From Escherichia coli (GTDB lineage: Bacteria > Pseudomonadota > Gammaproteobacteria > Enterobacterales > Enterobacteriaceae): DNA of 64,000 nucleotides. The notes beneath the pieces were generated by a model. The model was not told the origin of the DNA. It saw only the letters and a program-made list of their open reading frames with translations, and searched no databases. The DNA lies in NCBI RefSeq assembly GCF_044324785.1, contig NZ_CP172127.1. One strand, written 5' to 3'. This document shows, one piece after another, positions 12,099 through 15,270 of this stretch; position 1 is the stretch's first letter, and every line of letters begins with the position of its first letter. A program made the translations under genes and the position numbers.

Positions 12099-12132
12099 AG
12101 GCCGGATAAGACGCGGCCAGCGTCGCGTCCGG
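12099..12132. repeat. REP (BIME) element in the ttcA-dbpA intergenic region
   Basis: GGCCGGATAAGACGCGGCCAGCGTCGCGTCCGGC is the canonical E. coli REP palindrome. Confidence 0.75.
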
Positions 12133-12181
12133 CAATCCCGGAGAAGATGTTTACTCTTGCACCCTGCGATTCAACATTTCA

Positions 12182-13555
12182 TTATTTTAATAACCGCACC
12201 CGGCACGTTTTTCCTTTAATCTTCCCGCCCTGCAACTGTTTCCATGCTTTATGAGCAACAGCCTGACGCACCGCGACATAGACATGCGCCGGATGCACGG
12301 CGATTTTGCCAATATCTGCGCCATCAAGCCCGATATCTCCTGTCAGCGCACCTAATACATCACCCGGGCGCATTTTGGCTTTTTTCCCGCCATCGATACA
12401 TAACGTTGCCATTTCGGCTTCCAGCGGCACAATGGAACTATTAACTGGCGGCGTTTGCCAGTTAAGTTTTATCTGCAACATGTCAGAAATGATATTGGCC
12501 CGCTGTGCTTCTTCCGGGGCACAGAAACTGATCGCCAGACCGCTATTTCCTGCACGCGCTGTGCGACCGATGCGATGTACATGAACTTCAGGATCCCACG
12601 CCAGCTCAAAGTTCACCACCAGCTCAAGCGATTTAATATCCAGACCTCGCGCAGCAACATCAGTCGCAACCAGTACACGGGCGCTACCGTTAGCAAAACG
12701 TACCAGGGTCTGATCGCGATCGCGTTGCTCCAGATCGCCGTGTAACGACAATGCACTTTGCCCTACTTCATTCAGCGCGTCGCAGACAGCCTGGCAATCT
12801 TTTTTGGTATTGCAAAACACCACACAAGAGGATGGCTGATGCAAGCTTAATAACCGTTGCAACAGAGGAATTTTGCCTTTACTGGATGTCTCATAAAATT
12901 GTTGTTCAATGGGTGGCAAAGCATCTGTTGAGTCAATTTCAATCGCCAAAGGATCGCGTTGCACTCGTCCGCTGATTGCGGCGATGGCTTCCGGCCAGGT
13001 TGCCGAAAACAGAAGCGTCTGTCGAGATGCAGGCGCAAAACGGATGACATCATCAATGGCATCGCTAAATCCCATATCCAGCATGCGGTCGGCCTCATCC
13101 ATCACCAAAGTATTCAGCGCATCCAGTGATACCGTGCCTTTTTGCAAGTGATCCAGCAAACGACCCGGCGTTGCCACGATAATATGCGGCGCATGTTGCA
13201 ACGAATCACGCTGCAAACCGAACGGTTGACCACCGCACAACGTCAAAATTTTGGTATTTGGCAGAAAACGCGCCAACCGACGCAATTCACCTGCCACCTG
13301 ATCCGCCAGTTCACGCGTAGGACACAGCACTAAAGCCTGGGTTTGAAATAGCGACGCATCAATTTGCTGTAACAAGCCGAGGCCAAAAGCCGCCGTTTTG
13401 CCGCTGCCGGTTTTCGCCTGCACGCGAACATCTTTTCCGGCAAGGATCGCCGGAAGCGCGGCGGCCTGCACCGGCGTCATGGTTAAATAACCCAACTCAT
13501 TAAGGTTCGTGAGTTGGGCGGGAGGCAAAACATTCAGGGTAGAAAAAGCGGTCAC
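12182..13555 (-). CDS. dbpA: ATP-dependent RNA helicase DbpA (23S rRNA-specific DEAD-box), 457 aa, GTG start
   Basis: DEAD-box motifs (AKTGSGKT, DEAD, SAT, HRIGRTAR) and a C-terminal RNA-binding domain. The codon at 13553-13555 is GTG. Confidence 0.9.
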   Translation of the reverse strand: MTAFSTLNVLPPAQLTNLNELGYLTMTPVQAAALPAILAGKDVRVQAKTGSGKTAAFGLGLLQQIDASLFQTQALVLCPTRELADQVAGELRRLARFLPNTKILTLCGGQPFGLQRDSLQHAPHIIVATPGRLLDHLQKGTVSLDALNTLVMDEADRMLDMGFSDAIDDVIRFAPASRQTLLFSATWPEAIAAISGRVQRDPLAIEIDSTDALPPIEQQFYETSSKGKIPLLQRLLSLHQPSSCVVFCNTKKDCQAVCDALNEVGQSALSLHGDLEQRDRDQTLVRFANGSARVLVATDVAARGLDIKSLELVVNFELAWDPEVHVHRIGRTARAGNSGLAISFCAPEEAQRANIISDMLQIKLNWQTPPVNSSIVPLEAEMATLCIDGGKKAKMRPGDVLGALTGDIGLDGADIGKIAVHPAHVYVAVRQAVAHKAWKQLQGGKIKGKTCRVRLLK

Positions 13556-13584
13556 AATCTATTCTCGTGGTCATCGACGCAAAG

Positions 13585-13758
13585 TTAGCAGGCGCGTATC
13601 CTCGCAGATCTACGCTCACGATGCGACAATTTAATCGGTTCTTCATCGGGTGGTGGGTCAGGCATGGGTTGCGGGCGAGGGATTGGATCGGGCACAGGAA
13701 CAGGATCGCCAGGAATCGGTTCAGGGACAGGAATTTGCAAATAAATAAGTGTCGTCAT
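13585..13758 (-). CDS. Candidate small proline-rich protein or leader peptide, 57 aa: MTTLIYLQIPVPEPIPGDPVPVPDPIPRPQPMPDPPPDEEPIKLSHRERRSARIRAC
   Basis: Hand-translated ORF not in the >=60-aa track. The sequence ccGGAGGGaaatATG gives a strong SD 4 nt upstream of the ATG. Its stop lies 27 nt upstream of the dbpA GTG start. Confidence 0.4.
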   Translation of the reverse strand: MTTLIYLQIPVPEPIPGDPVPVPDPIPRPQPMPDPPPDEEPIKLSHRERRSARIRAC

Positions 13759-13815
13759 ATTTCCCTCCGGTCATTGGGTGGACTCTTAAAGGGTAGACGC
13801 TGATAAATAACAGGC

Positions 13816-13844
13816 AAAAAAAAGCCGACTCATCAAAGTCGGCG
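13816..13844 (-). terminator. Intrinsic terminator downstream of zntB
   Basis: On the minus strand, GCCGACTTTGATGAGTCGGC is followed by TTTTTTTT. Confidence 0.75.
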
Positions 13845-14032
13845 TCGTACGAATCAATTGTGCTATGCAGTAATTCAAAAAAGGAAGTAAGACAATATGG
13901 AGCGCAACGCCCATCGCTTGACGTTGCATTCACCTGCAAGGGAGATATTGCCCTGAATGGGTAGAGAGTTTATTGACTTCGCTCAAACTTTGCGGCGTTT
14001 TTGTATACAGACAGCCGGAAAAATTGCTTTTG

Positions 14033-15037
<1,005 letters not shown>

Positions 15038-15270
15038 TTATTTTGTAGTCTAGCCTTCTGGCCCTGTTACGCAACATCTCATCACCCCATTACCCTGAAA
15101 TGATTAATAAAATTCTGTCTAAATTGAATACAAAAAGCAAAATGCTTTTCCATATACAAACCGTGTGAAGTGTTAAATAGCGTCTATCATTATCAGAATT
15201 ATCTGATCATATGACGTGGCTTTTTTGCGATCGGATAGCAACAAAAATTGATAAAAATAATGGGATCTCA

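Follow-up and report, generated by a model that had tools for sequence, protein, structure and literature searches.

Introduction

Several described systems resemble the locus analysed here in layout. The Salmonella leaders MgtP and MgtL/MgtQ are, like ynaL, short open reading frames (ORFs) that carry consecutive prolines and/or a motif combining proline with acidic residues in front of a larger gene, and as models for ynaL they suggest that translation speed at prolines could in principle set downstream expression. These leaders work by alternative stem-loops, attenuators or rut exposure, with few codons mattering. In arrest peptides of the SecM, MifM and TnaC type, the N-terminus varies, about a tunnel length of sequence is conserved towards the C-terminus, and the ORF precedes a gene related to the machinery being monitored, an outline that ynaL recalls. 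Finally, the proline-rich rod of TonB is, as in YnaL, a low-complexity stretch of alternating proline and acidic residues that is predicted to be extended.

Here, we analyse the ORF upstream of dbpA in a 64,000-nucleotide stretch of the Escherichia coli contig NZ_CP172127.1 (hereafter, the window). The first-pass annotation had proposed a ribosome-stalling leader peptide coupling dbpA translation to EF-P or translation status, with an unannotated small protein as the alternative; the sequence evidence backs the leader-peptide claim weakly, and the small-protein fallback is borne out. Motifs of the DPPPD type, as found in YnaL, are expected to depend on EF-P, and the DbpA helicase remodels the A-loop/H92 region of rRNA, the site of Pro-Pro bond formation. 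That DbpA acts on the rRNA where Pro-Pro bonds are formed would give a sensing role its interest, and a link made by ynaL between EF-P or peptidyl-transferase performance and this 50S assembly helicase would, if true, amount to a novel feedback loop acting on the biogenesis of ribosomes. Our analysis sharpens the question of function: only an acidic proline-rich core with a near-invariant DPPPD is selected as peptide, and the tail of ynaL is a by-product of an embedded dbpA promoter-like element.

Results and discussion

The ORF upstream of dbpA is ynaL

The ORF and its neighbors are as follows:

13585..13758, minus strand: ynaL coding sequence (ORF list, Pfam PF23677, RefSeq, SPA-tagged identical K-12 protein)
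12182..13555, minus strand: dbpA, ATP-dependent RNA helicase, GTG start (ORF list, annotation)
13816..13937, minus strand: fnrS small RNA gene with its intrinsic terminator, hairpin 13843..13824 and T8 run (Rfam RF01796, terminator scan, MG1655 annotation)

Enclosed whole by the interval 13556..13815, the minus-strand ORF at 13585..13758 consists of an ATG-initiated frame of 57 codons followed by TAA (ORF list and sequence) and encodes exactly MTTLIYLQIPVPEPIPGDPVPVPDPIPRPQPMPDPPPDEEPIKLSHRERRSARIRAC, in which 16 of the 57 residues are proline. The first-pass annotation had this ORF and its product exactly right, as it did the GTG start of dbpA, but gave 27 nt for the gap between the two genes; the distance from stop to GTG is 29 nt (13584..13556). 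It had also assigned the terminator upstream of the ORF to zntB, and this assignment has to be revised. The FnrS model of Rfam (RF01796) scores 134.8 bits over 13937..13820, and the one strong terminator in this region is the hairpin of FnrS (13843..13824) with its T8 run. The zntB gene (14033..15016, minus strand) ends farther upstream than fnrS, which lies between zntB and ynaL, and the conserved gene order is zntB - fnrS - ynaL - dbpA - ttcA.

The ORF is the already catalogued gene ynaL (b4743), a genuine gene of the core Enterobacteriaceae that encodes the "proline-rich small protein YnaL". The product matches the Pfam family PF23677 (YnaL) at 136.9 bits (cutoff 27), with residues 1-57 placed on profile positions 1-57. 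Of 5426 complete E. coli genomes, 5392 are matched by a 481-nt query covering the region and 5390 carry the locus over at least 80% of the query length at no less than 95% identity, and RefSeq annotates a ynaL coding sequence ("protein YnaL" or "proline-rich small protein YnaL") in all 29 full-length E. coli matches that were sampled. In MG1655, ynaL (b4743) occupies 1409308..1409481 and is flanked by fnrS and dbpA. The strain behind the window is an E. coli other than K-12: over the 481-nt region, identity is 99.2% with K-12 derivatives and 99.6% with the best match; the 57-residue protein itself is the same in K-12 and in the window, and the position between fnrS and dbpA and the Shine-Dalgarno (SD) sequence are alike. 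Thus, the gene catalogue gains nothing from this ORF, which is present in RefSeq, Pfam and the small-protein literature: the suggestion of a small protein was sound, but the protein is not an unannotated one.

The identical 57-residue sequence has been given at these K-12 coordinates (VanOrsdel 2018, PMC6001520). In that study, ynaL was a previously unidentified positive in tetracycline-inhibited ribosome profiling, YnaL was seen by immunoblot in K-12 after the chromosomal copy of the ORF had received a 3'-terminal SPA tag, and ynaL was noted to adjoin dbpA, with an operon possibly common to both (VanOrsdel 2018, PMC6001520). The gene is translated from an ATG preceded by a strong SD. Since the tag is C-terminal, its detection means that in the wild type ribosomes get past the proline run and translate the ORF to its end, although the SPA tag may stabilise an otherwise short-lived peptide. 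Searches of the literature for ynaL or dbpA together with EF-P, FnrS or the ribosome returned this study as the only relevant work, and it gives no function for YnaL.

Conservation of ynaL across genera

Loci were anchored on DbpA residues 1-200, and 80 of them were fetched from species-representative genomes. The gene dbpA is directly preceded by a ynaL homologue in Citrobacter, Enterobacter, Klebsiella, Salmonella, Leclercia and Pseudescherichia, as well as in Kosakonia, Pseudocitrobacter, Pseudenterobacter, Intestinirhabdus and other genera; the order zntB - ynaL - dbpA - ttcA was also found in look-ups of Klebsiella and Raoultella. A protein search recovered 162 YnaL homologues; among the matches listed, all carry PF23677 and all named sources are Enterobacteriaceae. 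No homologue was found in a search of plasmids, where the low-complexity filter of BLAST may mask matches, and a search of the PDB yielded no YnaL relative.

Within this survey of 80 loci, ynaL is absent upstream of dbpA in Atlantibacter, Phytobacter, Mangrovibacter and Morganellaceae. Kluyvera also lacks the gene, its SD and proline-rich core being deleted, with one species keeping a remnant. In one Shigella flexneri genome, a frameshift or rearrangement affects ynaL and the match to dbpA begins only at residue 12, so that both genes look like pseudogenes. Elsewhere, indels in YnaL are in frame only, an example being the 10-residue tandem duplication within the PxP core of a Salmonella enterica variant (PIPDPRPHPQPMPDPRPHPQPMPDPPP), from which it appears that the repeat-like core can grow without loss of frame.

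A bare 57-codon ORF is in itself unremarkable, and what lifts this one above chance is that the ORF, SD and ATG are kept over about 25 loci with a signature of coding selection. The conservation in Enterobacteriaceae therefore concerns the ORF and not just the DNA, with SD, ATG and frame retained across approximately 25 genus- or species-level loci.

The proline-rich core is conserved as a peptide

Two parts of YnaL are central to the argument:

13627..13722, minus strand: acidic proline-rich core EPIPGDPVPVPDPIPRPQPMPDPPPDEEPIKL, codons 13-44 (codon-position conservation, dN/dS, AF2)
13656..13648, minus strand: PPP within DPPPD, codons 35-37, CCA CCA CCC (sequence; conserved in homologues)

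The core consensus among homologues is SDPxPTDPVPxPDPIPRPQPMPDPPPDEEPIK[LM]SH, and PPP is kept in 110 of the 120 YnaL homologues listed (162 found). In an alignment of 25 sequences, the first and second positions of codons 13-41 are ~1.00 identical, while at the third position the E. coli nucleotide is matched in 4-60% of sequences for most codons. Pairwise Nei-Gojobori estimates give a dN/dS of 0.07 (dS 1.1) for the core and 0.04 for dbpA codons 2-196 from the same genomes, and hence selection on the core as a peptide is of about the same strength as that on the helicase. The first ~12 codons of ynaL are variable at all positions and contain indels. Antisense coding does not account for this pattern, as wobble fits the ynaL frame alone. 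On this evidence, the functional part of YnaL is the ~30-residue acidic, alternating-proline core (PxPxP...DPPPDEEPIK).

These data bear directly on two readings in which the peptide itself has no role. The first is that ynaL is a chance ORF or an annotation artefact without function, in keeping with its short length, low complexity and lack of a known phenotype. Such a reading retains virtually no probability: SD, ATG and frame are conserved, purifying selection extends over many genera and the protein has been detected experimentally, so that it is refuted by the SPA-tag detection, the codon-position pattern and the dN/dS. The second holds that translation of ynaL merely keeps a long transcript free of Rho and feeds the poor dbpA start, the peptide being functionless. 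The strong SD of ynaL set against the weak SD and GTG of dbpA, the short intercistronic distance and the C-rich RNA would all suit passive protection of this kind. Nevertheless, it leaves unexplained a dN/dS of 0.07 over ~30 codons in which wobble positions are saturated and the non-proline residues D, I, R, Q, M, E and K are fixed, and taxa that have no ynaL share the same dbpA start region; we therefore give passive coupling only a small probability.

With the family alignment as input, AF2 produced no helix or strand (pTM 0.22), with high confidence confined to residues 21-40 (pLDDT ~90), and an extended rod that resembles polyproline II and lacks a fold is accordingly predicted for the core. 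The resemblance to the TonB rod is one of composition only: YnaL has neither a membrane anchor nor a C-terminal domain, and it scores 20.8 bits against the TonB model, its only match in NCBIfam (cutoff 315), and 11 against Pfam TonB_N (cutoff 33). Membership among the proline-rich antimicrobial peptides of the oncocin/Bac7 type can likewise be dismissed, because these have cationic PRP-rich sequences, whereas core residues 13-44 are acidic, with 7 Asp/Glu versus 2 Arg/Lys.

CCG is the commonest proline codon of E. coli. In this strain, the proline codons of ynaL are CCT (7), CCG (3), CCC (3) and CCA (3), and conservation between genera does not extend to their third positions.

The 3' end of ynaL contains a putative dbpA promoter

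Downstream of the core, the pattern of conservation changes, and two nucleotide-invariant blocks overlap the last codons of ynaL:

13621..13638, minus strand: block A CCGATTAAATTGTCGCAT, codons 41-46; proposed UP/-35 region of a dbpA-proximal promoter (invariance at all codon positions)
13591..13611, minus strand: block B AGATCTGCGAGGATACGCGCC, codons 50-56; contains the extended -10-like TGCGAGGAT at 13606..13598 (invariance, motif likeness)

Both blocks are invariant at all three codon positions in the 25-sequence alignment, and the variable stretch of 9 nt between them is of fixed length. In block B, TGCGAGGAT (TGcGAGGAT) is followed by a GC-rich ACGCGCC discriminator, 42 nt before the dbpA GTG. 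Kluyvera keeps blocks A and B and the same dbpA start region despite the deletion of ynaL. In six loci, the stop codon of ynaL directly follows PIK[LM]S(H)R, leaving 57-63 nt to the GTG, and the nucleotides downstream are still invariant. Because the blocks persist in Kluyvera and in these six early-stop loci, the basic tail RSARIRAC is not selected as protein; it is encoded because the ynaL frame runs through a nucleotide-invariant element.

Equivalent motifs of the form TGnTAGnAT, at a similar distance from the GTG, are found in taxa that never had ynaL. Atlantibacter and Phytobacter, in which another gene lies upstream, carry TGCTAGCAT (TGcTAGCAT) at the aligned position, and Morganellaceae carry TGATAGTAT (TGaTAGTAT) 43 nt before the dbpA GTG. 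In this family, a CTCACGACA...TGATAGTATCATT motif is conserved at about 43 nt upstream of the GTG; it aligns with block B and resembles an extended -10 promoter.

The best remaining reading of blocks A and B, which we infer from the invariance at wobble positions, the fixed 9-nt spacer, the retention in Kluyvera and the equivalent motif in taxa without ynaL, is that of a putative dbpA-proximal promoter. A scan of 13400..14100 on both strands for consensus sigma-70 promoters had no match, both promoters proposed in this study falling below the threshold of 9/12, and the two proposals are therefore based on comparative conservation.

Other causes of the invariance were considered and set aside. 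Autoregulation by DbpA through an rRNA mimic is not supported, as alignment of the region from block A to the dbpA start with 23S nt 2440-2620 scores 14 (shuffle mean 14.7) and with the whole 23S rRNA scores 19 (shuffle 19.5). An overlapping ORF in an alternative frame (MKNRLNCRI...DLRGYAP) lacks its ATG in several genera (GAC GAA GAA for GAT GAA GAA) and measures anywhere between 28 and 48 aa, and Kluyvera retains the blocks although it lacks this ORF. A consensus RNA fold was not found by RNAalifold either.

Expression of ynaL and dbpA

The signals that would govern ynaL and dbpA are the following:

13790..13817, minus strand: putative ynaL promoter, TTGCCT (13817..13812), 16 nt, TACCCT (13795..13790) (multi-genus alignment)
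13763..13768, minus strand: Shine-Dalgarno GGAGGG, 4 nt before the ynaL ATG (sequence; GGAGG conserved across genera)
13556..13584, minus strand: spacer of 29 nt between the ynaL stop and the dbpA GTG, with a weak SD-like CGAGAA at 13567..13562 (sequence)

The SD of ynaL is as strong as had been claimed, GGAGGG (13768..13763) being separated from the ATG by AAAT, that is, by 4 nt. Upstream, abutting the tail of the FnrS terminator, the multi-genus alignment shows conservation of the TTGCCT and TACCCT hexamers and of the distance between them, and ynaL may have its promoter in TTGCCT-N16-TACCCT. Kluyvera, too, has kept CTACCCT. The distance from the ynaL stop to the GTG ranges from 14 to 63 nt among genera and is thus not conserved; dbpA is GTG-initiated with a weak SD, and both of these features recur in taxa that lack ynaL. 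No terminator was found between ynaL and dbpA, all minus-strand terminator-like sites in 13400..14100 being within fnrS (its terminator and an internal hairpin).

We favor, with a probability of about 0.5, the reading that YnaL is a peptide product whose acidic proline rod is functional and which is co-expressed with dbpA but is not needed for dbpA expression. According to this scenario, a transcript would start at the ynaL promoter next to the FnrS terminator and, because no terminator intervenes, would run on into dbpA, such that dbpA would be made from both a long ynaL-dbpA mRNA and a short mRNA independent of ynaL. YnaL would act as a peptide, possibly as a short rigid proline-rich ligand or spacer produced together with DbpA; its synthesis would need EF-P at DPPPD, and it would not be an obligatory cis-acting switch for dbpA. 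That dbpA is likely independent of ynaL follows from the shared weak SD and GTG in taxa lacking ynaL and from the loss of ynaL in Kluyvera.

The trans-acting function at the heart of this reading is one that we infer from peptide-level conservation, which would equally fit a function of the nascent chain in cis. Indeed, a variable N-terminus followed by ~30 conserved C-proximal residues, as seen in YnaL, is the pattern of arrest peptides too, and a linear motif acting in trans would give the same pattern. The strict adjacency of ynaL to dbpA in all genera that have it is also compatible with a functional link in cis.

Leader-peptide models

Could YnaL then regulate dbpA during its own translation? 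In one such model, the ribosome would pause at DPPPD on the long mRNA, and the consequence, either Rho loading or less reinitiation, would change the output of dbpA. By the first route, poor performance of EF-P or of the peptidyl-transferase centre would uncouple translation from transcription and allow Rho to load on the C-rich ynaL RNA; by the second, fewer ribosomes would get to the ynaL stop and be available for the nearby GTG. Much at the locus suits an EF-P or peptidyl-transferase sensor of this sort. DPPPD is near-invariant, and the conserved stretch of ~30 residues ends just past PPP, which is roughly the length of the exit tunnel. The RNA of the 96-nt core is C-rich and G-poor (C 37 versus G 18, a sense-strand GC skew of about -0.42), and as unstructured RNA of ~80 nt or more lying upstream it has the makings of a rut-like site. 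The weak SD and GTG of dbpA stand 14-63 nt after the ynaL stop with no terminator in between. Precedents exist in Salmonella, namely mgtP with EF-P and the leader ORFs that combine proline with acidic residues, and EF-P-dependent polarity is known from E. coli reporters, in which a polyproline motif located upstream of either a rut site or a terminator made downstream expression dependent on EF-P (Elgamal 2016, PMC5021804).

Several observations nonetheless make the sensing model unlikely. An mgtP-type attenuator has consecutive proline codons, which ynaL possesses, and a terminator/antiterminator pair, which is missing before dbpA, where no intrinsic terminator of any kind was detected after ynaL. 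The C-richness of the core is an automatic by-product of its proline codons. Moreover, the likely dbpA promoter lies downstream of PPP, and part of the dbpA mRNA would consequently be made without ynaL; the stop-to-GTG distance is not conserved; and Kluyvera dispenses with ynaL, just as other taxa without it use the same weak dbpA start. A polyproline pause needs few codons, whereas ~30 residues of YnaL are fixed, including D, I, R, Q, M, E and K. The accumulation of the full-length tagged protein implies that any pause is not terminal in the wild type. Our literature search found no link of ynaL or dbpA expression to EF-P, and in the part of the EfpL/EF-P pause table that was available, a dbpA motif is listed and there is no ynaL entry among the entries listed.

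A more specific version, in which YnaL serves as a "monitoring substrate" of the peptidyl-transferase centre, with EF-P or A-loop/H92 deficiency causing a pause that tunes DbpA synthesis through Rho or reinitiation, appears to us rather improbable.

A switch in RNA structure was sought directly. RNAalifold, applied to 28 aligned leaders, returned a consensus of -4 kcal/mol with trivial helices only. Partition-function calculations for 24 loci put the mean accessibility of the dbpA start at 0.47 when the RNA was free, and at 0.46 and 0.47, respectively, when a ribosome occupied PPP or the stop codon. With no RNA switch and an accessibility that the modelled ribosome leaves unchanged, an alternative structure that exposes the ribosome-binding site, as in SecM, MifM or ErmCL, finds no support, and a SecM/Erm-type RNA switch is unlikely for ynaL; the same results weigh against the sensing model above. 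In ynaL, unlike SecM, MifM and TnaC, a stalled ribosome is not predicted to unmask the dbpA ribosome-binding site, and the downstream gene apparently has its own promoter inside the ORF. Similarly, ynaL differs from the mgt leaders in that no terminator or alternative structure was found, in that ~30 residues are conserved as a peptide and in that a full-length product accumulates.

The composition of PDPPPDEEP, in which proline is combined with acidic residues (review PMC12856214; mgtQ PMC8092293), also invites comparison with uORFs of the IRD type such as MgtL/MgtQ, in which the motif would abort translation in response to Mg2+ or the state of the ribosome and thereby control the downstream gene. 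For ynaL, this has a very small probability. The motif occupies residues 33-41 and not the vicinity of the N-terminus, where the nascent chain is short; C-terminally tagged, full-length YnaL is readily detected; and no alternative stem-loops were found. Its placement at residues 33-41 and the full-length tagged product set ynaL outside the MgtL/MgtQ class.

Other observations at the locus and at dbpA homologues

In Oxalobacteraceae (Massilia, Duganella and Telluria), the dbpA homologue is closely preceded by a different conserved ORF of ~74-84 aa (MRDKKDNATIDLPGFEPAAPL...LDLTGLPVWAP), which is unrelated to YnaL. In the window, the dbpA-ttcA spacer contains at 12100..12138 a palindromic match to naRNA4 (REP-like) on both strands, which at 22-24 bits is below the gathering score of 59.5. 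On the other side of the locus, a 15-codon ORF (15030..15077, minus strand) ends 13 nt upstream of the zntB start and, compared by position alone, corresponds to the 48-nt coding sequence annotated as "protein YnaN" in K-12 derivatives.
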